From positions 38,670 to 102,669 of IMG/VR virus record IMGVR_UViG_3300024999_000057: a stretch of 64,000 nucleotides of DNA; one strand, 5' to 3'. Source of the stretch: a virus. Position 1 is the stretch's first letter; each line of letters starts with the position of its first letter. Below, in pieces: positions 7,368-63,664 of this stretch. Both the position numbers and the translations under genes were made by a program. Below the pieces are notes generated by a model. The model was not told where the DNA came from. It made no database searches and was given only the letters and a program-made list of their open reading frames with translations.

Positions 7368-7394
7368 AAAGTTCCTTCCTCCAAGGGGAACGAG

Positions 7395-7429
7395 AAAGGG
7401 CTCCTGGGTTGGTTACCAGGAGCCCTTTT
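7395..7429. terminator. bidirectional terminator at the +/- strand convergence
   Basis: AAAGGGCTCCTGG / CCAGGAGCCCTTT 13-bp stem between convergent gene blocks. Confidence 0.85.
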
Positions 7430-7441
7430 GGTTTTAGCGTT

Positions 7442-8062: not shown

Positions 8063-8063
8063 T

Positions 8064-9962: not shown

Positions 9963-10028
9963 TTATGCTTGGTGCTCCTGTGGTGTTTGAAATGAAAGGC
10001 TGGCAGTTCTCCACCAGCCTTTCTAAAA

Positions 10029-10466
10029 TTAAATTCCCGAATGGCCGAAGCCGCCCTGCCCTCTTTCCGATTCGCTCAGTTCGTCCACCTCTTCCCACTG
10101 GATCGTCTCGAACTTGTTCAGCACGAGTTGGCAGATCCTGTCGCCGGGATTGAGGGTGAACGGCTCGGTGCCGTGGTTGATCAGGATGGCACCTACGGTT
10201 CCACGATACGATTCGTCGATGGTACCCGGAGAATTAAGCACCGAAATGCCATGCTTCAACGCCAATCCCGACCTCGGGCGTACCTGTATTTCATACCCTT
10301 CGGGGATTTCCACACTAATCCCGAGGCTGACCAATTTCCTGTCTCGGGGCCAGAGAGTAAGAGGCTTTTCGATAGCAGCCCTCCCGTCACAACCAGCATC
10401 CCCGATTCGGGCGTACACAGGTACTCCGAAATCTGCCAGATTTTTAACCTTAACGGTTACAGGCAT
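10029..10466 (-). CDS. dut: trimeric dUTPase
   Basis: AGCD, RPRSGLA, GTIDESYRG, RICQL, RGQGGFGHSG motifs. Confidence 0.95.
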   Translation of the reverse strand: MPVTVKVKNLADFGVPVYARIGDAGCDGRAAIEKPLTLWPRDRKLVSLGISVEIPEGYEIQVRPRSGLALKHGISVLNSPGTIDESYRGTVGAILINHGTEPFTLNPGDRICQLVLNKFETIQWEEVDELSESERGQGGFGHSGI

Positions 10467-30476: not shown

Positions 30477-31022
30477 TCAGGCGCACGCTGCCTCCTGAGC
30501 CTCGGGTGAATAAGGCATGAATTTAACCTTCGCCTTTCTCACCGCCTCAGCCGCTTCTTCCACTGTGTCGAAGAGCCCGAGGTGCTTCTGCTTGTAGTCA
30601 AGCATGATGTAGGCTCGCCACTTCTTACTCTGAGTGTGTCGCGCTACTCCCTTGGCCCCACTGGTGTTGTTACGGTTGCGCCGGGTGCGGTTGTGGTTAT
30701 TCTGGGTGTGGTCGGCAATTCGCAGGTTCTCGCGGCGGTTATCCAAAGTATTTCCATTGATGCGGTCCACCAGTTCGCCTTCCTTAGCGTGCGCGAGCAG
30801 GCGGTGCATTGACAGATTTTGCTGCGGGTAATTACGAGGGGCTCTGCAGTAAGCGTAATAACCGCCTCTCCGCTTAGTCTTGTCATCTATGCACCATGAA
30901 ATATCCGAGATATTCACCGCTACAAAATCTTCCTCAGAAACAAGCGCCTCAAATTTCTGCCCGTTGAGTCGGTGGATGTGGATTGTGACCACTCCATTCT
31001 TTATTTCGTATTTATTCTTCAT
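30477..31022 (-). CDS. HNH-AP2 homing endonuclease (catalytic His replaced by Arg)
   Basis: MHRLL...VDRINGNTLDNRRENLR, SGAKGV, WRAYI, HLGLFDTVEEAA. Confidence 0.88.
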   Translation of the reverse strand: MKNKYEIKNGVVTIHIHRLNGQKFEALVSEEDFVAVNISDISWCIDDKTKRRGGYYAYCRAPRNYPQQNLSMHRLLAHAKEGELVDRINGNTLDNRRENLRIADHTQNNHNRTRRNRNNTSGAKGVARHTQSKKWRAYIMLDYKQKHLGLFDTVEEAAEAVRKAKVKFMPYSPEAQEAACA

Positions 31023-33826
31023 GCCGCTTCCAACTCCTCCATGTCCTCGTCTTCTTCCTCGTCAAGTTCCTCTTCATCTACCAAGGCAGTTCCGAAGTCC
31101 TCACTAAATTCAGCCCAGTTCTTGCCCCACTCTGCTTCAGCAGCCATAGGAATTGGACAGTTTTCCATTGGGGGCTGGGTCATGTGGTAAAGTAGACGGT
31201 CCCTAGCCTCTACCAGCCCGTCTCGGGACACTTCCGAGTAATTCGCGTCGTGACAACTCCCAATAAGAAGTACGTCACTTCCAGACTCATCAATCTCCTC
31301 CTGCAGGTTACAGATCGAAAGCAGCAGACTGACCGAAGCCGGATTCTGGATCGTGGCATTTATGGCCTGGCGTACTGCCTGGGCCTTGATGCCTTCGTCA
31401 TCCGAGTTAATCGCCGGGACCCGCCGCTTGTACCCGTAGTATGAGAGGGCATAGCCTTTTTCCAGAGTCGAAATCGTCATATCCTTGATGTACTGGTCCA
31501 CGCCCTTGTACTTGGCGAAGTACTCATCGAGGATCTGCTGCGCCATGTCCTTCGTGTACTCCTGGAGATCAAGGGTTTCCCCCTTGGACTTCGCAAGTTC
31601 TTGTCGCTCGATGATGGACTCGTTGACCTTCTTGGCGAGGGCATCAGGACCTCCACCGTAAATGGAGAGAAATTGTACGGTTTTGGAAACACTGTTTCTT
31701 TCGAACTCGTACTGCTTCTTCACATCGTTAGGTGGGCAGGTGATGTAATCGAACAACTCTTTCGCGATTGCGCCGTGGATGTCGATGCCCTGTTTGAAAA
31801 TCTCGATCAGCTTCTCGTCGCCCGAGACAATCGCAGCCCACCGCATTTCGATTGCAGAGAGGTCGGCACCCAGAAGAACTCTGCCTTCCGGAGCTTCGAA
31901 CATCTTCTTAATCGCTTTGACCAACTTCATCTTCCGCTCATCGCCGCGAGCCGGGAGGTTTTGGAGGTTCGGGTCGCGTGAACTGGATCTTCCGGTTTTG
32001 GCCCCGCAAGCGTTGTACGTCCCGTGGACCCTCCCATTCACCGTCTTGCTTAAAACCCCGATCACGTAAGTGCTCAAGAACTTGCACATTTCCGAGTAGT
32101 GCTGGATCTTCTGCAGGAACTCCTTGTGCCTGGGTTCGCTTCGCATCCAGATCGACATCGCTTCTTTGTCCGTCGCAGGAGCACCCTTCTTGGTGCGCTT
32201 CACGACATCCATCTTCATCACGTCGAAGAAGAGGACCTGCTTCTGAGGAACCGAGCCTAGTTTGAACACGATGGGCTGCTTCAGTTCGGTGATCCGCACC
32301 GTGCTGTCGGCAGTGGCCTTGTCGATTTTTTTCTGGAGGGAGACACGCTCCTTCTCCATCTGCTTGAGGAACTTCGGGTCGATCCCTTCATAGGGCTTTT
32401 CAAGCATCGCGAACTCACCGCGAAGCTCTTTCAGCTTCTCCAGGGCCTTCTTATTTTTGGTCTCGGTTTCCTTCTTCAGCTTGTTCTGAGTCAGGACCTC
32501 AACTGCCTTAGTTATGTTGGGCGCGGCCAGCAACTCCACTTCCATCTCAGCGATTTCTTTTTCAAACTTCTTCTGAAGTTCCCTGCCGTATTCCACGTTG
32601 ATCGGCCAGCCATTCAGTTCGAACCGAGTCAGCAGCCAGTTGATCCTCATGACCAACTCGAAGGTTTTCTCCTGCTCCTCCTTTTTCAACTCCTCCTTGA
32701 AGTGGAGGTAAAGACGGAAGGTAGCGTCCGAATCGCAGAGGGCGTATTGCGCCAGCGTCTCGAACGGAATCATCCCGTAGGAGAAAACCGGCTTGCCGGG
32801 GTTCTTCGTCGAGGGCTTTTTCAGGATCTTGTGCTTCTTGCAATACTCGTCCTTGAAGCGCTCCAGTTCCAACTCGTAGTCGCCCATGTCGGTGAGTTGG
32901 CAGGTAAGGTCTTTCAGGCCGTTCGGCGTATTCTCGTCGCACAAGAAACTGGCTATCATCGTGTCGAAGGAGCGCCCCTTCTGAAGTGGGACTCCCCAGT
33001 GATGGTTGATGAATTTGTCATCGAACTTCTTGTTGTGTCCGATAATCAGCTTGTTCGGGTCCGTGAAAATCAGGGTGATCTGGGCCTTGATCCAAGCCCA
33101 CTCTTCCTCACTCCACAGGTTCAGTACAGCGGGACATTCAGGCCCGTTGCAGGGAATCAGGTAGCTGTACCCCGGCTTATGCGAGAACTGGATCGTCGTG
33201 ATGCTGTCGATGTTGAAGTAGAGCCCGGTCGTCTCGGTGTCATAAGCGACCTCCCGGACCAGTGGAGAGGTGTAATGCTGGAAGAATCCTTGAAGCTTGG
33301 GGATTGAATCCAGGATCGTGTAGTGCGTCTCCAACTTGTCCGCTTCCCTGATCTCCGGGAACTCCTTCTCGACCACTGCTTGCTTGACGACCGAAGCAAT
33401 CACGTTCATAATTCCGGGGTCATGCTTCGCTTGCGCTGGGTTCGGGCAGGGGAGAACTTTCAGACCCGCGTACTTCTCCGAGATCAACGTCTTACCGAAA
33501 TACTTGGCAGCGCCCTTCCTTCCTGTGATCTTCTCGAAGGCGCCAGCTCCTACCGGGATGCAGACGTTGAAGCCGTAGGTCTCGATTAACTCATCAACGT
33601 AGGGCGCCTTGTATTTGTACTCAGTAGCCTTCGGCTTCGAGTCCTGCGTGTCCGCCAGGCACAAAGCCGAGACCTCTGAAAAGTCGAGCCCCGCGTCAAT
33701 AAATTTCTTGAGGAGGGGCTCGATGCCTTTTTGTGAAACCTTCCCGTCTTTGATCCAGTCCTTGTGTTGGGCGTTGTCGAAGACGATCAGGACCTTCTTG
33801 CTTTCACCTATTCTTGCGTAGATCAA
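31019..33826 (-). CDS. polA: family A DNA polymerase with N-terminal UDG-like and 3'-5' exonuclease domains
   Basis: DTETTG, HNKKFD, YALCD exo motifs; TGRSSSRDPNLQN, DLSAIEMR, KTVQFLSIYG, AINATIQ, CHDA; N-domain IPVGAGAF...PCPNPA. Confidence 0.95.
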   Translation of the reverse strand: MIYARIGESKKVLIVFDNAQHKDWIKDGKVSQKGIEPLLKKFIDAGLDFSEVSALCLADTQDSKPKATEYKYKAPYVDELIETYGFNVCIPVGAGAFEKITGRKGAAKYFGKTLISEKYAGLKVLPCPNPAQAKHDPGIMNVIASVVKQAVVEKEFPEIREADKLETHYTILDSIPKLQGFFQHYTSPLVREVAYDTETTGLYFNIDSITTIQFSHKPGYSYLIPCNGPECPAVLNLWSEEEWAWIKAQITLIFTDPNKLIIGHNKKFDDKFINHHWGVPLQKGRSFDTMIASFLCDENTPNGLKDLTCQLTDMGDYELELERFKDEYCKKHKILKKPSTKNPGKPVFSYGMIPFETLAQYALCDSDATFRLYLHFKEELKKEEQEKTFELVMRINWLLTRFELNGWPINVEYGRELQKKFEKEIAEMEVELLAAPNITKAVEVLTQNKLKKETETKNKKALEKLKELRGEFAMLEKPYEGIDPKFLKQMEKERVSLQKKIDKATADSTVRITELKQPIVFKLGSVPQKQVLFFDVMKMDVVKRTKKGAPATDKEAMSIWMRSEPRHKEFLQKIQHYSEMCKFLSTYVIGVLSKTVNGRVHGTYNACGAKTGRSSSRDPNLQNLPARGDERKMKLVKAIKKMFEAPEGRVLLGADLSAIEMRWAAIVSGDEKLIEIFKQGIDIHGAIAKELFDYITCPPNDVKKQYEFERNSVSKTVQFLSIYGGGPDALAKKVNESIIERQELAKSKGETLDLQEYTKDMAQQILDEYFAKYKGVDQYIKDMTISTLEKGYALSYYGYKRRVPAINSDDEGIKAQAVRQAINATIQNPASVSLLLSICNLQEEIDESGSDVLLIGSCHDANYSEVSRDGLVEARDRLLYHMTQPPMENCPIPMAAEAEWGKNWAEFSEDFGTALVDEEELDEEEDEDMEELEAA

Positions 33827-34038
33827 ACCTCTTCATCCTCCCAGCAACTTGCGTGAACCAACTGTCTCTTCGACCCGACCCGAAATCTCACCACCACTTT
33901 CCCTGAAATAACTTCCCCACACTTACTCCGATTCGAGTGCCCACCTGTGACGACCACAAGCGCCCTCACAATTGCTTTGTCCTGCTCCTTGAACGGCTGG
34001 TTGCAAACCGCGCAGACGTTAGAAAATCCTCCTGCCAT
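33823..34038 (-). CDS. small zinc-finger protein
   Basis: CAVC...HASC. Confidence 0.6.
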   Translation of the reverse strand: MAGGFSNVCAVCNQPFKEQDKAIVRALVVVTGGHSNRSKCGEVISGKVVVRFRVGSKRQLVHASCWEDEEV

Positions 34039-34066
34039 TTCTACCTCCCATTCAGATGTGAATTTG

Positions 34067-34549
34067 TTAGAGAGCCGTTACCACAACACCTAGCCCACTG
34101 GCTCTCAGGACATCGAGATTGTTTTCTCCGTAAGCGACCAAGCAGATTGGTGCTCCAGAATTAAACGGAGCCCTCTTACCGTCTACGTAGTGGAAATGCG
34201 GGCGCCCCTTGATGAACAGCACACCTGTCGCTTTGCCCCAAATTGTCTCGTAAAACATCGCTGTCTCAGTTCTAGCAGGAATTAAAGCGATGCCGTTGTT
34301 GTGCTGGGCCATCTTTCTGAGCCACTTCACTGCTTCCCTACCGAACGGTGGATTCAGCCATATTCGGCCCTGCCACTCTTGATTCAGCCCCTCTTGCTCG
34401 ACTGTATAATGTCGCGAAGCGGTAGGCCACGGTCTAACAATCGGAGCACAAGGGTCCAGGTCAAAGGTACCTAGTGGGGCCAGTATTTCGGGTGGAGTAA
34501 GCCACTCGTCGTTTTTCATTTTGGCGCTTTGGTGCGCAGATAATCCCAT
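34067..34549 (-). CDS. phage DNA N6-adenine methyltransferase (Dam-like)
   Basis: DEWLTPP, LDPCA, WLNPPF, LIPARTET, IKGR. Confidence 0.9.
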   Translation of the reverse strand: MGLSAHQSAKMKNDEWLTPPEILAPLGTFDLDPCAPIVRPWPTASRHYTVEQEGLNQEWQGRIWLNPPFGREAVKWLRKMAQHNNGIALIPARTETAMFYETIWGKATGVLFIKGRPHFHYVDGKRAPFNSGAPICLVAYGENNLDVLRASGLGVVVTAL

Positions 34550-34583
34550 TTCTACCTCCCATTCAGCTGTGAATTTGATTAGG

Positions 34584-34877
34584 CTAAATTTCTAACTCCC
34601 CAGACCTACGGGCCTCATCCAAGCGCGCCTGACCTTCTTCCTTCGTCTGCAAGCGAGGCCACCACAGCCCGTCTGGTACCTTGATCCCGGTCATCATCCC
34701 GACCGGGATAGGCACTATGAAAAGGTAATTCTCGGTGCAATGCTCGACGGCCTCTTCCTCGGTCTCGAAGAGCCCTTCCAGCATCCAGCCGTTTACCTGC
34801 CCATCGTCAGCGATACCATTTACGTGTTGCCCAACCGCGTACATTTTCCTGATCTCAGGATTTTCCCACCATTTCAT
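34584..34877 (-). CDS. hypothetical cassette gene
   Basis: Start MKWWENP lies inside repeat copy 3 with GGGAGG RBS. Confidence 0.65.
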   Translation of the reverse strand: MKWWENPEIRKMYAVGQHVNGIADDGQVNGWMLEGLFETEEEAVEHCTENYLFIVPIPVGMMTGIKVPDGLWWPRLQTKEEGQARLDEARRSGELEI

Positions 34878-34923
34878 TTCTACCTCCCATTCAGATGTGA
34901 ATTTGATTAGTCGCGGGTCAGCC

Positions 34924-36327
34924 CTACGCGAACAGGCGAACGAGCCACCCAAGGCCAAGCGCAACCGCAGGCTTCACCACCCCTTTGCAAGCAACGTGCA
35001 TCAGTGCTTCTTCTGGGCTTCTGTCGTTCTTTTTGTTGTCATAGGGTTGCGTCATGTAGGAGACGAGCAGCGACAGTCCTATTGCTGAGTTGATGGTCAA
35101 CTGTGACAGTCCGAACGTACCCACCACAAACCAGCCCCAGAGTATGCTCAGCGCGTACCCAGACCAGAGGCAGGACAGCCCGATAATCAAAACACTCAAA
35201 ACCAAATATCCAATTGCTTTCATATTTTTCTCCTTTTGTTTGGTCCTAAAAATCCCACTCCCGCTCTTCGATCTTGGCGCCTTTCTTCCTCAGGAAAGGA
35301 ATCAGCACATCCTTGAAGCACTTCGGGCAGATGTCCACCGTCAACTCGGTGCCCCAACCTCCCTCCGGGTAACTGGAGCCATCCTTCTGGCGAGCCGTCA
35401 CCTCGACCTCGACTTCATTCACCTCCCAGGAAGAAGAATCCCAATTACCGCGCTTGGCTACAGCACCGCAAAGGTCGCAGGTGGTTTCTTCCAAGTAGGT
35501 CTCGACGCCGGTTCTAGGCCGCGTTTCGTATTTTCTCATTTTGTCTCCTTTAGCCCAGATCAGTCAGCTTGAAGTCGTCGTTGGTGCGAGCGAATTGTCC
35601 TCGCATCCCACACCAAGTCTGGTAAGATTCAAGCCCGCCGAAAAATGTGGCCTCCTGACTCATCACGTCCTTAATCTCCGCGCAAGTCAGGTTCCGGTCC
35701 TCCCACTCGTCGCAACCAGAGCAGGAGCCGTACCAGTACCTGTAGGAGAAGACCCTGCCGTCAGCCAGCAGCACGTCGATGTCTACGTGCCCTTGGTAGT
35801 CGGACTCATAATCGAGGCGCAGAATCTCGATCCCCTTTAATTCTTCGATGACCTCTTGGAGGATCGAGGAGTACCTCGCGTCCTCCGTTGCTTCTACGAT
35901 GTTGAGCATTTTAGTTCCTCCCGAGGAAGATGAAAGTCTGGTCCGCGTCTTTGCAGAGGGATGCGTAGAAATCCCTCACCCGCTCATTCTTAAACACAAG
36001 CCGGGGTTCGTCTACGTAAATTCGGCTGTAGCGTTCCACACACCTCCTTGACTGGAACTCAGTAACCGTCTCAGCAACGTCCGAGTAGAAGCAGATCAGT
36101 GTGGGATCATGTACCACAATCAGGTCACCCGCCTGCGCTCTGGATTTGATGTACTCGGTTTTACCTGCTCGCCGGTTAGGGTTCGCAGTTACCGTAGCTA
36201 GTTCCATCGCATAACCCACAGGCCCTAGCGCACTGAACCACTTGTCATCCTTAAACCGCTCCCTGAATTGCTCATTTGCCTCAACCAGTAAATCGACCGC
36301 GCAACAAAATTTTTCGTAATGATCCAA
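34924..36327 (-). CDS. four small hypothetical genes (34924-35223 membrane, 35246-35539 Zn, 35550-35909, 35911-36327)
   Basis: Tandem ORFs, each with an RBS. Confidence 0.6.
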
Positions 36328-36330
36328 AAT

Positions 36331-37371
36331 TTACTCCCTCCTAATTTCCGGTTCGTACAACTCGTTCCCGCATTTCCCCTTCGCGTTGAAAGGGCATTTC
36401 CATTTTTTGCACTCGGCACCAAACTCGATTTTAAACTCCCAATTTTCGAGGAGACAGGTGGGGAGCTTGATGGAGCCTCTTCGCTCAACAGCCAGGTCCA
36501 TCTCCTCCTGAGTCAGATCGCCCATATCCTTCCCGGTTCCGTAGTAGATCGAAGCGTCGGCGCAGGTGACCTTGAACCAGGGCATCAGCGAAGCACAAAT
36601 TCGCTGAGTCGCTTGGTATCCAGGTTTGTCACAATCTGGGAAGAAGCAGACTTCCGTTGCCCCCATCGACAGCAAGAGCATGACCTTGTTTTTTGACCAA
36701 TTATTTACTCCGAAGGCACAAGTGGCTGCGTAGCCTTTGTCGATCCCGTTGATCGCATGAAAGTGGCCTTCCCCTAGTAAAATTAAGTCAGGCTTCATCG
36801 CCTTGATAATGTCGTGACACGCAATCCATTTTGATTTTACGAGCAGCCCTTTATTACGAATCCACTTGGGTTGCTCATCACCAAGAGCCCTAGCATCCAC
36901 TCCGATTAATTCCCCATTCAAATAAACGGGGAAGACGATTCTTCCAGCATAACGACCTCGACTACAACGTATCGCCCCAACCCGCCTGTAGGTCTCCAAG
37001 CTGATGCCTCGGTATCCGTCCTCGTCCCAAATTTCCCCACTCGGAAAAAATACCGACTGCTCCTCCTCGACAACTGGGAGGGATTCGGTCTTGCTCATTC
37101 TGGACAGAATCCCTCTTAGCCCAAGCCCAAGCTCCTGCATTTCATCTAGTTCTTCACCGAGGAGCCACCGGTGGAGTCCTGCTTCGTTCAAAGAGAACCC
37201 ACATGCGAAGCAATGGGCCACCCTTTTTTCGACGTTAATTCCTAGGCTGGGCTTATTATCCACGCCACCAGAATGCAGGTGCTGATGGGGGCAAACTACG
37301 GCCACTTCATCCCCGCCCTTGTGCTCGTAGTCGATGCCCTTGCTTTCTAGGAGTTCAAGGATTTCCATCAC
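36331..37371 (-). CDS. DNA primase (Zn finger + TOPRIM)
   Basis: CPH...CFAC, RIVFP, LGEG, FPDCDKPG, KDMGD. Confidence 0.88.
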   Translation of the reverse strand: MMEILELLESKGIDYEHKGGDEVAVVCPHQHLHSGGVDNKPSLGINVEKRVAHCFACGFSLNEAGLHRWLLGEELDEMQELGLGLRGILSRMSKTESLPVVEEEQSVFFPSGEIWDEDGYRGISLETYRRVGAIRCSRGRYAGRIVFPVYLNGELIGVDARALGDEQPKWIRNKGLLVKSKWIACHDIIKAMKPDLILLGEGHFHAINGIDKGYAATCAFGVNNWSKNKVMLLLSMGATEVCFFPDCDKPGYQATQRICASLMPWFKVTCADASIYYGTGKDMGDLTQEEMDLAVERRGSIKLPTCLLENWEFKIEFGAECKKWKCPFNAKGKCGNELYEPEIRRE

Positions 37372-37862
37372 GCAGCCTCAGCCAAGGTCCAGCCCTTAAC
37401 GATCCCCGCGTACCACTCGGTCTTGCCGTCTTTGTCGGTTGCGCCCGTGATCGCGCTAATCCGAAGGGGGCCGTTCAGGTACCGGGCGAAGTAATCGAGC
37501 CTGCTTTTAGCGCGGCTGCTTAATCCGGAGTATTGGACCGCGAAGTAATTTTGGCAGGCCTTCGCCCTACCCACAGGGCGGTAAATTTCTCCGTGCCACC
37601 TGCGCGACAGGACGTACTTCACCCACTCAAGCCCCTGCCAAACAGCACGCGGAACGTCCTTGTTGGCGCCGTAGTCGTAGACCACACACTCGTGTCCTAG
37701 CACAGCGGACATCAGGAAGTCGTCGGAGAGAGTCATCAAAATGTCTTCCCAGCGCTTCTGCTCGCAGGCCGTAGACTGGATTCGGATGAACCTAACGTCC
37801 TCCAAGCCGTAGTCCTGAATGGCTTGGATTCCGTTGGTCAGGTTGAGGAAATGGTGCTTCAT
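37368..37862 (-). CDS. conserved phage hypothetical protein
   Basis: HFLNLTNG, FIRIQSTACEQKRW; coupled to the primase by ATGA overlap. Confidence 0.65.
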   Translation of the reverse strand: MKHHFLNLTNGIQAIQDYGLEDVRFIRIQSTACEQKRWEDILMTLSDDFLMSAVLGHECVVYDYGANKDVPRAVWQGLEWVKYVLSRRWHGEIYRPVGRAKACQNYFAVQYSGLSSRAKSRLDYFARYLNGPLRISAITGATDKDGKTEWYAGIVKGWTLAEAA

Positions 37863-38063
37863 CCGGCTAAACCTCCCTTTTATACAAATCCACTAATTCC
37901 TCGGTACTCAGTTTCCCAAGGGCTTCCTTGTTCCAAGCCCAAGACTCGTTGTGCTGGTTCCCGGAGAACTTAGCGAATCCTTTGTTCTCCATTTGGCTTG
38001 CGTCAGCACAGTTTAGAAATGCCCTACCCATCACCGCGTGGATCATGAGTTGCTTTATTGGGT

Positions 38064-39467
38064 TCATGTGGCCTCCGCTTCTACTTCCTCTGTATCAACC
38101 ACTCCGGTGTCCTTTACGATGCCCTCTAAAATCTTGAAATCTAGCGTCTTGTTCTTGAAGATTTTCATGGAGCCGGTTTCGAGATTATCGACTCGGACGC
38201 ACACGCCTTCTCTGATATGGCTCTGGTCGATAGGATCTGCGATGTCCACTTTGTCAGTCAAAATTTCCACCCAATCCTTCAAGGCAACCACGTTATCCTC
38301 AGTTCGGACCAGTCGGGTTCGACACCAATCCGCCGCTTTTACCTCAGGCACATGTTTCACCCCAGCTTTCCTGCAGCGCTCCTTCACAACTCCCCAAGGC
38401 ATCTCCAGCATCCCGCCGTCTTCACCCATCAGGGCGATCCGGTAGACGTAGATCTCGCACTCGGCAGGCAAGCAGCCGTACTTGTAGGTCATGGTCTTAC
38501 CAAAGCGCTTCACGAAATCCTTACCCATCTTCAAGCAATCGACGGTGCTCATGATCGGCCTGCCTGATTCCTCGAAGCCTACGATCTCGTAGTACCAGAC
38601 CTCATTCTGCTTGAGGTGAGGCGCAAGCCGTTGGTGGCACTTCTCGCGGAAGTCCTTATCGACCTCATTGACTTCGCCTCGGACCTCGCCCTTGATCACC
38701 CTCCGCGTGCCGTAGACCGACTTCCAGATTTCGTAGGAAGGCCTTTCACGAAGTTGCTCCTTCTTCAGGTCCGACAGGAAGAAGTTGAAGAGGTGCTTCT
38801 CGGGACCGAAGAATGCGTCAGCGAATGCGAAGTAAAGTTCCTCACGCCATTTCAGCGGGCGCTCTTCTTTGACCCTCAGCTTCGAACTTCTGCCCGAGGT
38901 GCCGTGTAATTTAGCCGTCAGCGTCACCAGGCCCATCAACTCGTCAGGCCTTGCGTGCCTGAGTTGGTCGGTTTCGAGGTGCTCAGGGAACATCCTCTTC
39001 AATGACTCGTTCAGCTTGGGTGTTTTCGGCTTGTTTGCTGCGGCTGCTCTCTTGGTAGCCTCGGTCACGAACTTGTTGCAGATCGAGATTCCACCCAGTT
39101 CTACGAACTTGGTCCCGACTTCCAGCTTCTTCAGGTCGTAACCCGTGAAGGCCAGTGAGTGCAGCCCGATCACGAAAGCCTCCGACTTCTCGCCACGAAA
39201 CTTCTGAGCACGGACCCTGCGACTCGCATCGAAGTAGCCGCCTTTCCTCTCTCCGGTCTCTGGGTCCGTGTAGCCAACCAAATCGTTGGCCTTAGCGAAC
39301 ACCTCGGAGATCTGCCCGTCATCCGGGAACAGCACCACGACTTCGCCTTCCTTGGCCTCAAGGCCTACGATCACCTGGTAGCCGAGGCACGTAGCCACGT
39401 TCAGGCGATCAGCGTTCGAGTGCTTCCTCACATTTTCCAACTTCGAAATTACTGCGGTATAAGCCAT
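38064..39467 (-). CDS. RNA ligase, DRB0094/Rnl5-like
   Basis: N-terminal HSNADRL OB domain; TAKLHGTS motif I, YYEIVG, REGVCVR, FKNK. Confidence 0.85.
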   Translation of the reverse strand: MAYTAVISKLENVRKHSNADRLNVATCLGYQVIVGLEAKEGEVVVLFPDDGQISEVFAKANDLVGYTDPETGERKGGYFDASRRVRAQKFRGEKSEAFVIGLHSLAFTGYDLKKLEVGTKFVELGGISICNKFVTEATKRAAAANKPKTPKLNESLKRMFPEHLETDQLRHARPDELMGLVTLTAKLHGTSGRSSKLRVKEERPLKWREELYFAFADAFFGPEKHLFNFFLSDLKKEQLRERPSYEIWKSVYGTRRVIKGEVRGEVNEVDKDFREKCHQRLAPHLKQNEVWYYEIVGFEESGRPIMSTVDCLKMGKDFVKRFGKTMTYKYGCLPAECEIYVYRIALMGEDGGMLEMPWGVVKERCRKAGVKHVPEVKAADWCRTRLVRTEDNVVALKDWVEILTDKVDIADPIDQSHIREGVCVRVDNLETGSMKIFKNKTLDFKILEGIVKDTGVVDTEEVEAEAT

Positions 39468-39505
39468 TTCCCCTCCTATTCATATCTGAATTTGTTCGAC
39501 CAAAA

Positions 39506-39748
39506 CTACCTCACCGGAGCCGCGATGTCGCAGCCAGGGGTCTCGCTGTTGTCGAGCAGGATCACCGAGTTGCCTACTGTGTCGAGGCGCTGATCGTCGA
39601 ACCAGCGGCCTTCCTTGAAATCCCCAGCCTCGCTGACAGCAGGTGCAAGCAGTGTTTGGTTGCAGCCGCTGATGTACTCGCAATGCCCAGTAGCAATGCC
39701 GGTGAACCCGGTAATCTTGTCCTTGTACTTCATTCCCAAAATCATCAT
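39506..39748 (-). CDS. conserved small phage protein
   Basis: KDKITGFTGIATG...GC...WFDDQRL; flanked on both sides by operator palindromes. Confidence 0.65.
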   Translation of the reverse strand: MMILGMKYKDKITGFTGIATGHCEYISGCNQTLLAPAVSEAGDFKEGRWFDDQRLDTVGNSVILLDNSETPGCDIAAPVR

Positions 39749-39794
39749 TTTACTTCTCCTATTCACTTCTGAATTTGTTTAGGCGCAAAAGCGC

Positions 39795-40562
39795 CTAAGA
39801 CTTCAAATACTTAACCAACTCATCGACCGTCACTACCATCCCAGGGTCTTCCCATTTCATAGCAACCCCTGTCAGTTCGAAGTACCTCTTTTTGAACTCC
39901 ACAGGGTCCAAATGTGAACAAACTAACGTTGGCTTGCCTTCCGTCCTGCGGTGCTGGATCAGCATTCGCAGTACCGACTGACTAAACTCGGTGGTGTACT
40001 CCGTGCCAACCATGTACAGACAAAGGATTTCAGCTTTATCGGCTGAGGTCGCCACGTAATTATTCTGGTCCCACTTTTTGACTTCCTCCATGAGCTTCCC
40101 AAAACTAGTCATCTTGGCATCGACTCCGGATTTTATCGCTGCCTTAATCACGTTCGACGCGGCCTGAAGAGCAGCGGACTCAAACCCCGAGTGGAAGTAG
40201 AGGACCAACGGCTTTCCAAGGATTTTATTTATGTCACCCAGAATCAAATCGTAGGCGTTCACGGTCTTGACTCCCGCGACCGGCGTTTCATTATTCCGGA
40301 TGTACGGGACCGGGACTCCGGAGGCTTTCAGCTTCTTCTCGAAAAACTCTAATTCTTGCATGGTGCTCCAAAGGTGCTGGTCGATTTTCTCGATCAAACC
40401 AGGCAATAAAATTGGGACCTCAGTGAGGTCCCGGTAATTTTTTACCACTACCTTGAGATAAGGCAGCGGGATTCTGAGGTGGTGCTTGAAGGTTGAATGT
40501 TGTTTCCAGCCTAGGTAACCCAGCGGCTCGATTGGGGATTTGTTGTAACTAGCCTCTGCCAA
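39795..40562 (-). CDS. DnaC/IstB-like AAA+ protein with degenerate Walker motifs
   Basis: EILCLYMVGTE...LIQHRRTEGKPTLVCSHL matches the DnaC/IstB C-half; no GxxGxGKT. Confidence 0.6.
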   Translation of the reverse strand: MAEASYNKSPIEPLGYLGWKQHSTFKHHLRIPLPYLKVVVKNYRDLTEVPILLPGLIEKIDQHLWSTMQELEFFEKKLKASGVPVPYIRNNETPVAGVKTVNAYDLILGDINKILGKPLVLYFHSGFESAALQAASNVIKAAIKSGVDAKMTSFGKLMEEVKKWDQNNYVATSADKAEILCLYMVGTEYTTEFSQSVLRMLIQHRRTEGKPTLVCSHLDPVEFKKRYFELTGVAMKWEDPGMVVTVDELVKYLKS

Positions 40563-41958
40563 AGTAGTTCGCCACAGCGTCCTCTCGGGAGATGTCTAGC
40601 ATCTTGAGGCAGTGCTTCAGGAGAGTGTCGTTGTCCACGTCTTCCCCTCGGCAGAACTTGCAGGAGGATTCCTCGTCGGAATCTTCGTCTACTACATCGG
40701 GACACACGAAACCGTCCTTCTCGGCGCACTCATCGGAGCACCACTTCATGCAGCAGGCGCAACGGACGTAATCCCCACAATCCGGAAATGTCTCGCCACA
40801 CCTTTCACACGCATACCAATCAACGCTCATCTTTAACCTCCAAAATTTACTCGCACCGAAGCGCGGAAGTAATCCAGCCCAAGAGCGCCTAGCCCGAGGC
40901 AAAGCCCTGCGATTCCATAGAGGATGCAGGCTGCTATCAGCGAGACTACGAGTTCGCTAACGAATTTCTCGATCTTACCCAACATAGCCCCTCCGCGCTT
41001 CCAGAATGTGTGCCAAGCCAGGACGAGCGACCGTCCCGGAATCACCTACGGGAACCAGGATGCACTTCGGGATGACCCGCTTGAATCCCTGCAGGTCCTT
41101 GATTACTCTGGCCTTGTGCATCTGCTTGGCGAATTTTATTTCAGCTTTGTCGTTGGAGAGGATGGAGAATCCACAATGCCTGCAGAAAAAATTATATTTC
41201 ATTCGAGATAACCTCCTCGACCATCCAGGAGGAGAAAGTATAGCCACCGCCCTCTTGCTCGAACCAAGTATAGGTTTGCTCATCTTCCTCTTCGTGGTCC
41301 CAGGTATTAGCCACGATCAGGTCTTTCCCACAAAACTCCTGCATCTCCTCAACAAACGCGGGTCCGCGATCAATTTCCACGTAGGCCTCTGCATAGAATT
41401 CTGCGTTCTCCTCAAGCAGCTTCTCCCAACTCTTGATCCTAACTTTGTCTCCAGCTTTAATTTCCATCTCCTGCCTCCTTAAATGGCCTGAATCCTGTCA
41501 GACTCAGGGTTTGCTTGTAGATCCTTCCGGTCGAGTTGCATTCGTCGCAGGGCTCTAACCAGCGGTTGTACTCGCGGTGATGGTAGTCAGCCAACTCCTC
41601 GCGCTGGATTTCTCCCGTGCCTCCACACCTAGCGCACAGTGCGATCTCCTCCTTGATAAAAGGTCGCAGGTCGCCTCCTCGATTTACTGACTTGTGCAAG
41701 TCTGCTGTGGGCTTATCCTCAGCAGCCAATCCCAACCTAAACACGCTTCCTCCTCTTTTTCCTCAGCGATAGTGGCAGCACCAATTCAGGTGCCCCATAC
41801 TTCTCCGTAATTTTTTCCTCAGGCTGAAATTTTAGAAGTTCCTGGTACTTCCTTGAATATTCAGGGCACTTCGATTTCGTGCCCGTCTTGCACATGTAGA
41901 CGCAGACGGTCGCATCCTTGGTCCCTCCACATTTCAGGAGAGGGCATCTCATTTGCAT
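40549..41958 (-). CDS. cluster of small Cys-rich/hypothetical genes (40549-40830, 41192-41467, 41457-41744, 41737-41958 and others)
   Basis: Tandem short ORFs with CxxC motifs and RBSs. Confidence 0.55.
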
Positions 41959-49094: not shown

Positions 49095-51107
49095 TTATTC
49101 CGCCGCTTTAATATTCAGCAGCGGCCTGATGTGGTCGATCACACTCACGGTGACTCCCTCCTGCTTTGCCAGCACGTAATTGATGTCCTTGTAGGCGGCG
49201 GGCGCCTCATCCAGGATTGAGCGGTTGGTGGAGCAGATGATGCCTTGCATCCCGTCCTTGAACTCCTGATAATCCAGCGTCTTCTTCGCTTGGTTCCTTC
49301 CCATGACCCTACCGCAGCCGTGAGATGCCGAGGAGAGATAATAGGACTCGCCCAAGCCTTCCGTGATGTACACGCCATCTCGCATGTTGGCTGGGATCAC
49401 ACCAAGCTGCCCCAGGTCCGCAGGAGTCGCTCCTTTGCGGTGCAGGACGCCCTCAGGAGTTACGACGGCGTGATTGTGGTTCTCGTTGATGACGCGGTTC
49501 GCTAACTGGTTAGGGTGCAGCCCTAGGCATTGTAGCACTTGGGTCATCATCCGCAGCCGATTCTCCAGTGCCCACTCCAGAGCGAAATTCATGTCCTGAA
49601 GATAAGCCTGTCCAAGCTCAGACTCCAGAGGGAACAACCGGCCCTTCTTCATGTACCAACCGCCGATTGTATGGCCTACGTTCCTGGACCCCGAGTGAAT
49701 CGTGACGCAGAGGTTGCCCTTCTGGTTCTCGCCAAGCTCTATGAAATGATTTCCGCCACCTAGCGTTCCGAGTTGGGTGCCAACTTTAGCCTGGACTCGC
49801 TGGTGCGTGTTAACATCCATCACGTCTGAAAACAGCACCCAATCGTAGCCTTGGTCCTTTGTATGTGAGGAGAACCCCGTAGGAATCACCTTCAGGATGT
49901 CGTTGTAGATGCCTCGGAGGGTAGTCACGCTCGCAGCCTTGATGCCTGTGTCTAACGAGCACATTCCACAGTTTCCAGTGATAAAAATCTTGTTGTTGCG
50001 CCTAGCTACGAAATATCCCGAAGGAACCGTGAAGCAATATTCTTTACCGTCTTGAGACGACACGAAGTTAATCGCCTCGTTTTTGGTTAGTCCCACATAC
50101 TCGTTTTTGGTTTTGTAAACCCACCAAGTTGAGTTCCAATCTTTCCCCTCGTAAGAGTGGCAGTGTATGCCAGTTCTGGCCCCCGCCACCGTAAAGGCAT
50201 ACTGAATTAAATCCGCATTTTGCTTGCAAGTAGCGGAAAAAGCTTCGTGCTCACCCACTGTACCATCCCAATGCAAACATTCTTCTGCAATAATTCTGAG
50301 TTGCGCTTCGCTACTTGCCCAGAAAATAGACAGGTCCTTAGTGACTCGATAGTCCCTGAAGTATATGTAGGTGCTGCCATCCACACCTACGGTTAACTCG
50401 TAATTTATTCCCGCCTGGTTAAGCAGTTCCTGGGCTCTAATTATTTTCCTCTCTTTTCTGAAGTGTAGTTCAGTGGTGCCTTGCTTTCTTATGTGCCCAT
50501 CCGCACTCACCATGACAATTACCCTGAGGATAGCATCAGTCATATCCAAATCAGGATTACTTAATTTGAACGTGGTTTTTATTCCGCCTTGTAGTCCTTT
50601 ACCTAGAGACCTGTGCTTTTCCACTAGTTCTTTAGTTGCATACACTTTGGGCTTATACCCCCGCGACTTGTATCCATGCCAGAACAGCACCTTGTGACCC
50701 GAAGACAGCATTTGATCCATGCCATCCTTGTGCCACAGATGGTAGAAGCCCTCTGATGGTTGCACCACATAACGCTGGGGTACTACAAACGATGCTTCAT
50801 CGGTAGTCGGGTTGTACTGAAGTACCTCGCCACCCCCGTATTCTGAAATTTTAACCCAACCACTAGGAGACAAAAACTCAGTGTCCTTATCAAGGCACCC
50901 GATATCGTATCCGACGAAAGAAGGAGAGATCATCCCCTCTAAAAGAGCGACTCCTCCAATCGGCAGGTCGTAACCTGCATGGACATCCGGCATGATCGCC
51001 AGCTTCTTCAGGCAATCCAATTCCAGTACATCAAAAATCTGCTGCTGAGCAGACTGCTCAATTTCCTCCAGTGGAACCGTCGAGAACAACCTGTTGAGCT
51101 TGCTCAT
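49095..51107 (-). CDS. rtcB: RtcB RNA ligase interrupted by an intein
   Basis: MPDVHAGY, GYDIG|CG, GTLGGGNHFIE, HSGSR, NHNH, HRKGA, SHGCGR, DEAPAAYK. Confidence 0.95.
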   Translation of the reverse strand: MSKLNRLFSTVPLEEIEQSAQQQIFDVLELDCLKKLAIMPDVHAGYDLPIGGVALLEGMISPSFVGYDIGCLDKDTEFLSPSGWVKISEYGGGEVLQYNPTTDEASFVVPQRYVVQPSEGFYHLWHKDGMDQMLSSGHKVLFWHGYKSRGYKPKVYATKELVEKHRSLGKGLQGGIKTTFKLSNPDLDMTDAILRVIVMVSADGHIRKQGTTELHFRKERKIIRAQELLNQAGINYELTVGVDGSTYIYFRDYRVTKDLSIFWASSEAQLRIIAEECLHWDGTVGEHEAFSATCKQNADLIQYAFTVAGARTGIHCHSYEGKDWNSTWWVYKTKNEYVGLTKNEAINFVSSQDGKEYCFTVPSGYFVARRNNKIFITGNCGMCSLDTGIKAASVTTLRGIYNDILKVIPTGFSSHTKDQGYDWVLFSDVMDVNTHQRVQAKVGTQLGTLGGGNHFIELGENQKGNLCVTIHSGSRNVGHTIGGWYMKKGRLFPLESELGQAYLQDMNFALEWALENRLRMMTQVLQCLGLHPNQLANRVINENHNHAVVTPEGVLHRKGATPADLGQLGVIPANMRDGVYITEGLGESYYLSSASHGCGRVMGRNQAKKTLDYQEFKDGMQGIICSTNRSILDEAPAAYKDINYVLAKQEGVTVSVIDHIRPLLNIKAAE
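49971..50897 (-). mobile_element. 309-aa intein with LAGLIDADG homing endonuclease
   Basis: Starts CLDKDTEFLSPSGW, ends YCFTVPSGYFVARRNNKIFITGN before extein Cys; SADG and HWDG blocks. Confidence 0.92.
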
Positions 51108-53107: not shown

Positions 53108-53713
53108 TTAAAAATGTCGATATTCCCTAGCCAATTTCAACACTTTTCGTGAATACTTCGGGTTCCGCCTGCCCCTCTCAAATGACCCAGTGCCTAAGTT
53201 GTAGACCTGCAGGCCGTTCCGGACCCCGTACTTCATCGTGTACTCTTTTAAAAGTACAGCAGAGCACCTGATGTTAACCTCGGGATCATACTTTTCAGAC
53301 TCCTTCGTAATTAGGGGGAACCTATCGGCATGAGCTTTGAAATCTACTTGCCCCGAGCCTTTAGCGCCGGTCCTGCTTCTTGCAAATGGGTACCCCTCAG
53401 ATTCGGCAGTGATTGTCCCGACTAATAAACTCAGGTCAAGATGCTGCTCTCTTGCGGCTTTGATCGTAGCTGCTGCCTGGTACTCAGCAAGCTCGGACCA
53501 AAGCCTTTCGTTCTTCTCCATGTACCAAAGCTTCAGCCTTTGAGTCGTAGCATCAACTTCATGCTTCCTCCCTTCAAGCAAAACTTGGGCTTTTTGATCC
53601 ACCTTCCTAACATCCAAGAGCGCCTTGGTTGCGACCGCCGTTGCTGCTGCAGTTAAAATCACCAGCAGAACTCCGATCTGGGCCAGGTGAGCCACCCGGA
53701 TTTTAAGCCTCAT
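53108..53713 (-). CDS. membrane-anchored lytic transglycosylase (SLT domain)
   Basis: ITAESEG, SRTGAKGSGQV, DPEVNI, YNLG; N-terminal TM. Confidence 0.85.
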   Translation of the reverse strand: MRLKIRVAHLAQIGVLLVILTAAATAVATKALLDVRKVDQKAQVLLEGRKHEVDATTQRLKLWYMEKNERLWSELAEYQAAATIKAAREQHLDLSLLVGTITAESEGYPFARSRTGAKGSGQVDFKAHADRFPLITKESEKYDPEVNIRCSAVLLKEYTMKYGVRNGLQVYNLGTGSFERGRRNPKYSRKVLKLAREYRHF

Positions 53714-53858
53714 TCAAAACTCCTTTTCTCAAAACGTACTCCTTGTCAATCAACTCTCTGAGGATCAGGGATTTGTTGGATTTCCCTGTGCCTAGCCTAA
53801 CGAGTTCATCCAGTTTTTTCGTAGTGTCCTCGTCGAGAGCGATGCAATGCTTGACCAT
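53703..53858 (-). CDS. ribbon-helix-helix (CopG-like) regulator
   Basis: KHCIALDEDTTKKLDEL...NKSLILRELID. Confidence 0.7.
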   Translation of the reverse strand: MVKHCIALDEDTTKKLDELVRLGTGKSNKSLILRELIDKEYVLRKGVLNEA

Positions 53859-54714: not shown

Positions 54715-55392
54715 CTACCCAATCCTCACCAGCAGATTCTTGACGCCCTGTGAAGTCCAGACCTTTTTCTTCCTGGGAGTCTGGATTCCTGCTTCAGTCA
54801 ATTGCTGAGCCAAGGCGGTTAAAGAGGTGATTCCTTGGTTCTGGAATTTGATTATTTCAGGTTTCAATTTCTCGGCGCGAAGATCCGCTTTGGTCCGGTT
54901 CTTGAGAGAGCCTTGGATTCTGCCATCTCCAAATTTGGCTTCATCTCTGTTCAAGTGGCACGCCTTGCCCAGTTGAACTCCCTTGGCCTTAGCCGCCTTC
55001 AGGCCGTTCTTGGTCCGCTCCCTGATCCTCTCCAACTCGTACTCAGCTACGCAGCCGAGCACGTTCAGTACGAACCTGCTTGTGTTGGGGAAGTCGCAGA
55101 TGATGATCTCGACTCCGGAATCCAGGATCACGGTGAGGAACGAGAGGCTCCTCGAAAGTCTGTCAAGTCTTGCTGTGATCAGCCTGCAGCCGGTCAACTC
55201 GCAGTAGTTCAGGGCCTCCTTGAGAACCGGTCTTTCCTTGTTGGAGCCAGATTCTACCTCGGTGTACTCCTTGATGACTTCGAGATTGTGACGGGTTGCG
55301 TAATCAGCAACTATGGCTCGCTGAGCGTCGAGTCCGTGTCGCTCTGACTGTCCTTTGGTTGAGACACGGCTGTAGAAAATGCACCGTTCCAT
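54715..55392 (-). CDS. small serine recombinase (resolvase/invertase family)
   Basis: YSRVST, ESGS..RP, LDRLSR, AEYELERIRERT, AKGVQLG, C-terminal DNA-binding segment. Confidence 0.93.
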   Translation of the reverse strand: MERCIFYSRVSTKGQSERHGLDAQRAIVADYATRHNLEVIKEYTEVESGSNKERPVLKEALNYCELTGCRLITARLDRLSRSLSFLTVILDSGVEIIICDFPNTSRFVLNVLGCVAEYELERIRERTKNGLKAAKAKGVQLGKACHLNRDEAKFGDGRIQGSLKNRTKADLRAEKLKPEIIKFQNQGITSLTALAQQLTEAGIQTPRKKKVWTSQGVKNLLVRIG

Positions 55393-58302: not shown

Positions 58303-58379
58303 ACAACCCCCTGTTTTGTTTAGGTTCTAGTGTGAGAATTCACATTTCAGAACATTAAAGAATTATAATAAAAAAAGAC

Positions 58380-58475
58380 TTGACAAACTATTAGAAACCG
58401 TGGTATTTTATAAACCGGCGCTAGCCGATGAAGTTATAGGTTTATACCCCTAGTAACTGGGTAGGGATTAGCGAG
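58380..58475 (+). repeat. antisense promoter plus conserved 36-nt element, copy 1
   Basis: TTGACA..TGGTATTTT then GTTTATACCCCTAGTAACTGGGTAGGGATTAGCGAG (58440-58475). Confidence 0.75.
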
Positions 58476-58514
58476 CCTTTTACCAGAATAGTACTTGACT
58501 AATTCGATAAAGAA

Positions 58515-59353: not shown

Positions 59354-59396
59354 TTCCTACCTCCAATTATTAGAGAAAAATAATTTAATTTGCCAC

Positions 59397-59490
59397 TTGA
59401 CAAATCCCAAAAGTGTGGTACACTTAAAATCGCCGAAGGCAAAAGAAGATTATAGTTTATACCCCTAGTAGTTGAGTAGGGTTTAGCGAG
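59397..59490 (+). repeat. antisense promoter plus conserved 36-nt element, copy 2
   Basis: TTGACA..TGGTACACT then GTTTATACCCCTAGTAGTTGAGTAGGGTTTAGCGAG (59455-59490), 32/36 identical to copy 1. Confidence 0.75.
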
Positions 59491-59543
59491 GATTTGCTCT
59501 CTACTAAACCCTACTGATTTGGTGTACAATTATTTCCCTGGAT

Positions 59544-60690: not shown

Positions 60691-60722
60691 TTTATTTCTC
60701 CTTCAAAAATGTGAGATTTCAC

Positions 60723-62433: not shown

Positions 62434-62775
62434 AATGCCTCCCCTTAAAAAATGTGAAATCTCACTTTTCCTACCTAAACATCCAGCTACACAAAACCAA
62501 CCCGCTAATCACAACCATCAAAACCAGGATCTGTCCAATGATAGTTTCTTCGTCTCTTTTGGCTGCGAGTTCGGCACGTTGTTTTAAAACGGTGTGAGAA
62601 ACGTAGTTCACGAAACCACCTCCACTCTCTCGCTACGAAGATCGACCCAAGCCAATCCATCGTTAAACTGCACCAAAACCATATCCGCCAATTCTTCAAG
62701 GCAGGTTCCACATCCGGTTCCTGCGACGAAAACTTGTTTATTTTTCATTTTTAGTTCTCCTTTAAATGTGAGAAT

Positions 62776-63456
62776 TCACTTTCTTCCCATTACCATCTTC
62801 ACGGCTTCATCCGCCAGTTTCCCGAAGTCAATCTCAGGAGCATACGCCGCCGCATACGCCGCCGCCCTCGCCGCATACGCCGCCCTCGCCGCATACGCCG
62901 CATACGCCGCATACGCCGCCGCCCTCGCCGCATACGCCGCCGCCCTCGCCGCATACGCCGCCGCATACGCCGCCGCCCTCGCCGCATACGCCGCCCTCGC
63001 CGCATACGCCACCGAAGGATTCTTCAGATACTCCTTCGCAGCTTCGACAGCTTTCCGAGGCCTGTCGTCTCCAGGCATGACATCCTCGAAGTGGTGCAAA
63101 ACCACCTCAGCACATAGGATAGCGAAGGCGACCCGAACCAGCTGTTCCTTCTCCGATCCTACCCACTTAGGCAACTTCAACTCCTTCACGACTTCCTGGG
63201 TCAAGCTACCTACTTTCCCGAAGTCGTGACAAACTACGGCGCCTTTAATCTCCCAAAGTTTTGGGTTGCTAATATCCGCATGAATCGGGTTAAGGAGGAA
63301 CACCAGGTTCTTGTTCCTGTACGCATGGAGCACGTCGGAGGAACAGAGTCGCGGATTATCCTTTTTAGGCTTGGTGTGGATCTTTTCGACTTCGCCGTAG
63401 GGGTAGCCGTTGTAGGTGGTTCCGTCTTGATTAGTGAGTTTGAATAATTTCTGCAT
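62776..63456 (-). CDS. Imm5-like domain protein with Ala/Tyr/Arg low-complexity repeat
   Basis: LCSSDVLHAY, CAEVVLHHFE...DDRPRKAVEAAK, AAYAAR repeats. Confidence 0.65.
   Translation of the reverse strand: MQKLFKLTNQDGTTYNGYPYGEVEKIHTKPKKDNPRLCSSDVLHAYRNKNLVFLLNPIHADISNPKLWEIKGAVVCHDFGKVGSLTQEVVKELKLPKWVGSEKEQLVRVAFAILCAEVVLHHFEDVMPGDDRPRKAVEAAKEYLKNPSVAYAARAAYAARAAAYAAAYAARAAAYAARAAAYAAYAAYAARAAYAARAAAYAAAYAPEIDFGKLADEAVKMVMGRK
62840..63010. repeat. coding tandem repeat (GCCGCATAC / GCCGCCCTC units)
   Basis: Directly visible 9-12 nt units. Confidence 0.95.
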
Positions 63457-63664
63457 TTTGATCTCCTTTAGGTTAAAATGTGAGAATTCACTTTTGCCTT
63501 CAAATCCACTTCTGAATTTATCAGGGCATGAAAATAGCCACGGTGTAGTGATAGCCGTAGTTCATGTACCAATCCCAGGTCGTTTTGATTCGTTTGGTTT
63601 TGCCTGATTTTAGTTTGACTTCGCAGATGATGGACATTTTTAGTCCTCCCTAAAATGTGAGATT

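Follow-up and report, generated by a model that had tools for sequence, protein, structure and literature searches.

Can a short repeat that supplies the translation signals of a gene also be the joint at which genes are gained and lost? This question is raised by 64,000 nucleotides (nt) of viral DNA (the whole stretch that was analyzed, hereafter the window), bases 38670-102669 of the IMG/VR record IMGVR_UViG_3300024999_000057 (hereafter G000; 102,669 bp, CheckV completeness 91%), in which three nearly identical units lie between the genes of a DNA primase and a family A DNA polymerase, where they bracket a Dam-family methyltransferase gene and a 97-amino-acid (aa) open reading frame (ORF). 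The original prediction, made from the sequence alone, was of an integron-like array whose units are gene-capture or shuffling joints, used by homologous recombination or by a serine recombinase, such that methylation could be switched on and off in the population. The joint with its preserved translation signals stands on the evolutionary scale, where relatives have junction variants, while the integron or serine recombinase and the population switch do not. We put at roughly 0.6 the probability that the units are operator-ribosome-binding-site (RBS) modules at gene boundaries that also serve as shuffling joints by general or short-homology recombination, rather than through a site-specific enzyme.

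One unit at three gene borders

A 31-mer common to the three units has exactly three matches in the window (34036-34066, 34547-34577 and 34875-34905; 30-31/31 identical) and was matched in none of 100 shuffled sequences, bearing out the near-identical repeats that had been claimed. On the coding (minus) strand each unit reads stop codon, CAA, the palindrome ATTCA-N4-TGAAT, the Shine-Dalgarno (SD) sequence GGGAGG, TAGAA, and ATG. Identity between the copies sets in around the stop codon of the gene in front and stops exactly at this ATG, with which an ORF begins in each case (71 aa, the 160-aa Dam, and 97 aa, respectively). The middle copy deviates at a single base in the palindrome center, which has C for A on the plus strand, and copies 2 and 3 have 36 nt in common (repeat family D10). 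The distance from the preceding stop to the 31-mer is 0 nt in copy 1, 6 nt in copy 2 and 18 nt in copy 3, and hence the description of the units as starting at or just after the upstream stop is roughly right. The three units are:

34036..34069, minus strand: U1, unit copy 1, made up of TAA (the Dam stop), CAA, ATTCACATCTGAAT, GGGAGG, TAGAA and the ATG of the 71-aa ORF Z
34547..34582, minus strand: U2, unit copy 2, before Dam, with the palindrome center CAGC, not CATC
34875..34910, minus strand: U3, unit copy 3, before the 97-aa ORF W, with the 5′ flank GCGACTAATCAA, which is the flank after other genes in relatives

Transcription runs from right to left, in the order primase, A, B, X, M, U3, W, U2, Dam, U1, Z, DNA polymerase:

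36331..37371, minus strand: DNA primase, upstream border of the variable region (phrog_47, E 6e-29)
35246..36327, minus strand: A (138 aa), B (119 aa) and X (97 aa), small ORFs of the variable stretch
34924..35223, minus strand: M, a 99-aa membrane protein (phrog_2169, E 2.5e-15; PHROG category 'moron, auxiliary metabolic gene and host takeover')
34584..34877, minus strand: W, the 97-aa ORF between U3 and U2, no family found
34067..34549, minus strand: Dam-family N6-adenine DNA methyltransferase, 160 aa, between U2 and U1 (PF05869, E 3e-12; phrog_111)
33823..34038, minus strand: Z, the 71-aa Cys-rich ORF directly before the DNA polymerase, the conserved anchor gene
31019..33826, minus strand: family A DNA polymerase, downstream border of the variable region (phrog_17, E 1e-124; PF01612, PF00476)

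Gene content before Z in relatives

Relatives of G000 were obtained by scanning IMG/VR with the exact pattern, which returned three contigs (L004-L006, within records G001-G003), and metagenome contigs with a degenerate pattern, which returned nine (L143-L151); all of them are 70-93% identical to G000 in nucleotide sequence, with G001 (82.5 kb) circularly permuted relative to it. In eight of the nine contigs Z is directly preceded by 27-30 nt identical to U1, also at the nine positions that the search pattern had left free, and the 30 nt of U1 are identical in all nine relatives, with L144 carrying the unit before an ORF termed N1 and Z behind a different SD. Upstream of the unit there is no conservation among the relatives, because different genes sit there (U, unit):

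G000: X-M-U-W-U-Dam-U-Z
G001, L146, L150: X-W-U-Z
L145: B-W-U-Z
L151: B-X-U-Z
L143, L148, L149: B-U-Z
L147: B-U-(28-aa mini-ORF + Mom-family gene)-U-Z
L144: B-U-N1 (71 aa, novel)-own SD-Z

In the alignment of G000 with G001 the blocks beside Dam share an overlap of 34 nt, namely the unit, and Dam is missing exactly there, so the two genomes differ by unit-gene-unit and single unit. The Mom-family gene of L147 (PF25680, E 2.5e-27; phrog_1384) occupies the same slot, likewise between two identical units. Dam, Mom, M and N1 were each seen in one sampled genome only. By tblastn Dam is matched in G000 and missing from every relative sampled, homologs of up to 79% aa identity are present on 51 viral contigs, all of them without the palindrome, and its G+C content at third codon positions is the lowest in the neighborhood, which fits a foreign origin. 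M, seen in G000, together with U3 forms a 367-nt insertion relative to G001. The unit can also have 5′ extensions of 6-8 nt (GCGAC-TAA, TAGCC-TAA and ACGCT-TAA), which follow different genes in different contigs and so indicate that units moved along with a few upstream bases. Comparing the gene content of relatives, as had been suggested, therefore turned up junction variants (the single unit of G001, L146 and L150; L147; L144), and in place of one gene order with diverged spacers and no variants there is an invariant unit with differing upstream neighbors.

Two further sites have a gene between two copies of a palindrome unit:

39478..39774, minus strand: second cassette site, an 80-aa ORF (39506-39748) between palindrome-SD units at 39478-39491 and 39761-39774
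62755..63495, minus strand: third cassette, a 226-aa Imm5-like ORF (62776-63456) between 21-nt copies of another palindrome unit, TAAAATGTGAGAATTCACTTT

L143 and L149 are without exactly the 80-aa ORF, while G001 is also without the RNA ligase gene (38064-39467), the joint being within the GGAGG of the SD. At the third site G001 has one copy of the TAAAATGTGAGAATTCACTTT unit and no Imm5-like gene. The looser palindromes noted around 39506-39748 and 53108-53858 do exist, at 39478 and 39761 and at 53089 and 53883, respectively. A second palindrome family, GTGA-N4-TCAC within AAATGTGAGAnTTCAC, occurs at many gene junctions in window 58331-63668, and its units at 62755-62783 and 63467-63495 bracket the Imm5-like gene. 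G+C-rich tandem repeats of 9-12 nt are found inside that gene (62822-63028) and at 63844-63999.

Between G000 and G001 there are 56 gaps of at least 120 nt, among them 23 clean indels, for which a palindrome was counted at distances of up to 45 nt from an edge. Junction homology among the 23 is longest at the Dam indel, the 34 nt of the unit, followed by 21 nt (the second unit), 15, 13 and 10 nt (mostly containing an SD), with the rest shorter. Taken together, the comparisons support a shuffling-joint role on the evolutionary scale, probably by short-homology recombination.

Several observations weigh against this role. A palindrome is at the edge of eight of the 23 clean indels, where about 30% is estimated from intergenic placement alone (an estimate that rests on palindromes at roughly 15% of gene junctions); the palindrome is thus unnecessary for gene flux and not clearly enriched, and the idea that palindromes are over-represented at indel edges across the genome was rejected. 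The insertions of M, N1, the RNA ligase and a 663-nt gene (G001 61127) involve one unit or an SD/ATG joint, and each brings an SD of its own for the gene that follows. In six of the nine relatives no more is seen than variable genes upstream of a conserved Z 5′ region, and for these unit-unit recombination is not required. Lastly, the array is stable at the scale sampled. Look-ups of exact proteins of the G000 type placed Z on 12 contigs, Dam on 13, W on 12, M on 14, X on 12 and B on 14, and proteins of the G001 type on 35-36 contigs. These near-equal counts point to two stable strains with no sign of Dam being turned on and off within one; Dam looks fixed in its strain, which goes against the proposed switching of methylation in the population, and a presence/absence polymorphism of Dam within a strain was rejected on the same counts.

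The strongest of the other explanations takes up just these points. It holds that the unit is a regulatory or translation-initiation module only, multiplied by local duplication, and that ordinary illegitimate or microhomology recombination together with selection changed the gene content, the unit having no causal role. Full conservation of the unit in all relatives, which places its whole length under selection, is consistent with such a module, as are the stability of the array in 12-14 assemblies and the fact that most indels elsewhere lack a palindrome, many having junction homologies of 1-15 nt that often include an SD. What makes this explanation unlikely, though still worth considering, is that two foreign DNA-modification genes (Dam and Mom) each sit between identical units in the same slot of different relatives, that the longest junction homology among the clean indels is the one at Dam, and that the extended 5′ flanks recur behind different genes. 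In addition, the SD and spacer vary at other palindrome-SD sites, and so the exact 31 nt appear functionally unnecessary.

Some features of the variable region and of its genes are recorded here. Z matched neither a Pfam family above the curated cut-off nor a PHROG family, and an ESM Atlas search with W gave sub-threshold leads only. In G001 and L145 W is preceded by V, a second and different short SD unit, TAA(A)GGAGACGAAA(A)ATG, which flanks X in G001 and L146; L145 is without X. A 33-nt stretch encoding GLF(E/D)T.EEA is common to window 30546-30578, 34743-34775 and 38073-38105 (family D16), carried by an ORF of the HNH/AP2 type, by W and near the 3′ end of the RNA ligase gene, and may represent either a shared small domain or a relic of recombination. 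Insertions of HNH-type endonuclease genes separate Z from the polymerase gene in L145 (89-958), L148 (662-1771), L149 and L143, an HNH_3/AP2 ORF follows the polymerase gene in G000 (window 30477-31022) and not in G001, and the polymerase is far more diverged between these two genomes than its flanks. HNH-linked, break-induced recombination may add to the plasticity at Z and the polymerase. In the RtcB ORF (670 aa, window 49095-51107) PF01139 is matched in two stretches, with about 309 aa inserted in frame between them; this intein-like insert (approximately 49970-50896), which PHROGs labels 'PhoH-like', is exactly missing in G001.

The palindrome as a probable DNA site

The palindrome extends well beyond the three units. 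Perfect copies of ATTCA-N4-TGAAT number 22 in the window and 32 in the whole record, where shuffles gave 0.05-0.1, and one-mismatch versions in the record number 15 against 2.6 expected; G001 carries 26 palindromes. About 17 palindromes are separated by 10-16 nt, including an SD, from a start codon, and three to five occupy a fixed register in sigma70-like promoters, TTGACA-N3-palindrome-TAnnnT. The promoter-spacer palindromes are:

G000 1508: palindrome in promoter spacer
G000 8194: palindrome in promoter spacer, before the integrase gene
G000 8485: palindrome in an 18-nt promoter spacer
window 58105: palindrome in promoter spacer

Two copies immediately precede a -35 element, and three are beside terminator hairpins. 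The integrase, a tyrosine recombinase, is encoded at G000 6928-8166, more than 60 kb from the unit array, and the 1.6 kb between its gene and the packaging genes (G000 8194-9810) contain six perfect or near-perfect palindromes, with a fully symmetric one at G000 9710 flanked by divergent sigma70-like promoters. Downstream of a palindrome-SD unit, at G000 9822-10205, lies the gene of a 127-aa helix-turn-helix (HTH) protein (Sigma70_r4_2). This HTH protein and the ORFs of 124, 60 and 57 aa at G000 8660-9034, 9409-9591 and 9239-9412, within the site-dense 8.2-9.8 kb, are candidate regulator genes, and the 1.6-kb region beside the integrase gene is likely an immunity or switch region.

Conservation acts on the arms as sequence. 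Both arms are intact at 23 of the 26 orthologous sites of G000 and G001, within blocks that are 76-95% identical, and the 4-nt center differs in five of these 23. Mismatches in degenerate copies are uncompensated, in that 11 of the 15 one-mismatch sites break a pair while compensated two-mismatch sites are at background. These data bear directly on the explanation that the palindrome acts as RNA, a hairpin beside the SD that would be a translational operator, a processing site or a stabilizer, for which the controls of the T4 gene 43 or regA type are the model. Such a role would suit the roughly 17 sites inside operons that are so close to start codons, and the SAS and ESAS motifs of Cluster K mycobacteriophages (described below) are similarly placed (PMC3203893). 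However, several palindromes lie between -35 and -10 elements, upstream of the start of transcription, and the center is found in either orientation relative to the adjacent gene. The RNA folds predicted for the three units are no better than those of shuffles (z-scores of -0.8 to +0.9), and their minimum free energy structures do not contain the palindrome hairpin. The stem of the unit has 5 bp and is A+T-rich, not a stable stem-loop of the terminator or attenuator kind, and no Rfam family was matched in the window. An RNA hairpin role was rejected on the uncompensated mismatches and the folds, and we consider it improbable.

A promoter within the unit was rejected as well. The sole -35-like hexamer of the unit (TTCACA) is 13 nt from its sole -10-like hexamer (TAGAAA), and no sigma70-like promoter site was found on the minus strand of window 33000-41000. 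Since the arms are kept as sequence and not as pairing, the palindrome is taken to be a DNA operator and not an RNA element; most likely it is a 5-N4-5 operator for a dimeric regulator rather than a promoter. The 32 perfect copies, those in promoter spacers and the integrase form together the pattern of an operator or stoperator network.

Two features of individual palindromes stand apart. ATTCAGATGTGAAT, the commonest variant, is on the plus strand of the whole of G000 at 12 sites versus two for ATTCACATCTGAAT, a bias that is independent of the strand of the adjacent gene; the corresponding counts in G001 are nine and four. In addition, G000 has at about 1585-1630 a 'split' palindrome, ATTCA-(29 nt)-TGAAT, where G001 has an intact palindrome and a 277-nt gene, and the resemblance of the 29 nt to the 3′ end of this gene suggests a deletion that ended inside the palindrome.

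No isolated phage is close to the virus in which this network occurs. The window encodes, apart from the family A polymerase and the primase, RNA and DNA ligases and RtcB and SbcC-like proteins, and the record also encodes a small terminase and HNH endonucleases; beyond about 10 kb almost all G000 genes are on the minus strand. Among isolated phages, megablast with 10 kb of G000 gave zero matches and tblastn with the polymerase gave relatives at no more than about 30% identity. A related-locus search of IMG/VR returned nothing with the polymerase alone and, with a polymerase alignment, a single moderately close relative (L063, 47%), which is without palindromes. A scan of genome contigs with the unit gave two chance matches in unrelated metagenome-assembled genomes without homology, and neither prophage nor host was found.

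A recombination model and known systems

The mechanism that we favor makes the unit a composite gene-boundary element, in which an upstream stop, CAA, the 14-bp palindrome, a strong SD (GGGAGG), a 5-nt spacer and ATG would act together. The palindrome would be a cis-regulatory DNA site spread over the whole genome, serving a dimeric regulator as operator in the spacers of sigma70-type promoters, and palindromes within operons may also hinder transcription before individual genes. Identical units in the stretch between primase and polymerase would offer 31-34 nt of homology at exact gene borders, and recombination between them, or of a resident unit with a unit-bearing donor, would add or remove whole ORFs, with an incoming ORF immediately translated correctly and under the same operator. 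While the comparative pattern is seen directly in the genomes, the type of recombination, general or short-homology with no dedicated site-specific enzyme, is one that we infer. A RecA-family recombinase was not found in the genome; other recombinase families were not searched. If correct, this mechanism provides a concrete example of the exchange of anti-restriction genes at exact ORF borders, with one invariant unit in at least seven different neighborhoods and Dam and Mom in the same slot, and the 32-site operator network predicts a regulator that could be identified experimentally.

A bolder version, which we put forward only tentatively, is that the unit is a plug that combines a repressor operator, an optimal RBS and portable homology, so that any ORF placed between units would be translated, silenced in the prophage and exchangeable. 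If that were true, the slot before the polymerase would swap anti-restriction genes such as Dam and Mom and thereby tune the host range of the population.

The weakest explanation is the integron-like one, in which a serine recombinase acts on the palindromes and excises or inserts circles of genes. The enzyme would be:

54715..55392, minus strand: small serine recombinase, 225 aa (PF00239, E 1.6e-28; best PHROG match phrog_125, DNA invertase)

Although a gene of the resolvase/invertase type is thus present in the genome and the units, each with its palindrome, are in direct orientation, this explanation is very improbable, as 20 kb separate the array from this gene, the only one with a resolvase domain, which G001 keeps irrespective of cassettes, the palindrome is a 14-bp site with 32 copies that include promoter spacers, the joints of insertions are at the SD/ATG part or upstream of the stop and not at the palindrome center, the center of U2 is unlike those of its partners, and no IntI-type integrase or attC-like site adjoins the array.

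The likeness to integrons is one of topology, with single promoterless ORFs in one orientation, a repeated element between them, and a cassette content that varies among relatives. In integrons, each cassette is followed by an attC site, an imperfect inverted repeat (R″-L″...L′-R′) that folds as a single strand. The neighbors of the present array are the primase, small ORFs and the DNA polymerase, with no IntI, attI or Pc next to it; it is without an adjacent IntI tyrosine recombinase, imperfect inverted repeats of the attC type and a Pc promoter with attI. Unlike attC, its repeat supplies each gene with RBS and start, and its joints are not at a fixed crossover point.

Similar in position are two elements of Cluster K mycobacteriophages (Pope et al., 2011; PMC3203893), the start-associated sequence (SAS), an asymmetric motif of 13 bp that includes the RBS 3-8 bp before many start codons, and the extended start-associated sequence (ESAS), an imperfect inverted repeat of 17 bp whose spacer varies. 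Both they and the palindrome-SD sites appear to be conserved across related temperate phages, with a motif that includes the RBS directly upstream of many starts, about half or more of them with an inverted repeat. Despite the likeness in placement and in the inverted repeat, their sequences bear no relation to each other, the SD part here is unconserved beyond the three units, the palindrome here is also found in promoter spacers, and no role in gene shuffling has been reported for SAS and ESAS.

In its distribution the palindrome resembles the stoperators of Cluster A mycobacteriophages, which are asymmetric 13-bp sites that are bound by a monomer of the L5 gp71-type repressor and act in one orientation (PMC9283540, PMC6550527). 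Both involve tens of copies of a short operator in intergenic gaps, with a copy at an early promoter, in a temperate phage, and this dispersed pattern fits the binding of a repressor that silences transcription through operons. The site here differs in being a symmetric 5-N4-5 palindrome, a putative operator, and the palindromes within operons may hinder elongation as stoperators do (PMC9283540).

The closest counterpart of the gene-boundary unit is the promoter-early stem-loop (PeSL) of T4-type phages, which has been described as a mobile regulatory cassette (Arbiol et al., 2010, PMC2839356; Comeau et al., 2014, PMC4122927). PeSLs span the region from the stop codon to the SD and start of the next gene, occur also around gene 43, and include the case of ORFan192, which lies between two PeSLs in RB49 where phi1 has a single PeSL (PMC2839356). 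Like them, the units are repeated composite elements with the stop of one gene at one end and the SD and start of the following gene at the other, and they cluster beside accessory ORFs in hyperplastic regions, including around the DNA polymerase gene. Here, too, a gene flanked by two units corresponds to a single unit in a close relative, in the cases of Dam, the 80-aa ORF and, with the other unit, the Imm5-like gene, and the proposed mechanism is the same, homologous exchange between units by which the incoming gene inherits expression signals. The PeSL model includes mini-circles formed by exchange between neighboring units, whereas exchange here is proposed from genome comparison. The units are also smaller (about 31-36 nt, versus about 100 bp for a PeSL), the three of them have neither a sigma70 promoter nor a stable G+C-rich stem-loop or terminator, and their core is an invariant A+T-rich 14-bp palindrome that is operator-like, in a phage that carries an integrase and is unrelated to T4. 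Hence the unit appears to work like a PeSL and yet is not one, as it lacks the promoter and terminator stem-loop features. The shuffling of mobile regulatory cassettes, so far a matter of T4-type lytic myoviruses, would thereby be extended to an unrelated, uncultivated lineage of integrase-bearing phages, in which the unit is much smaller and of other make-up, an operator palindrome with an SD and no promoter or terminator, while its topology and proposed mechanism, by analogy, match those of the T4-type PeSL model.

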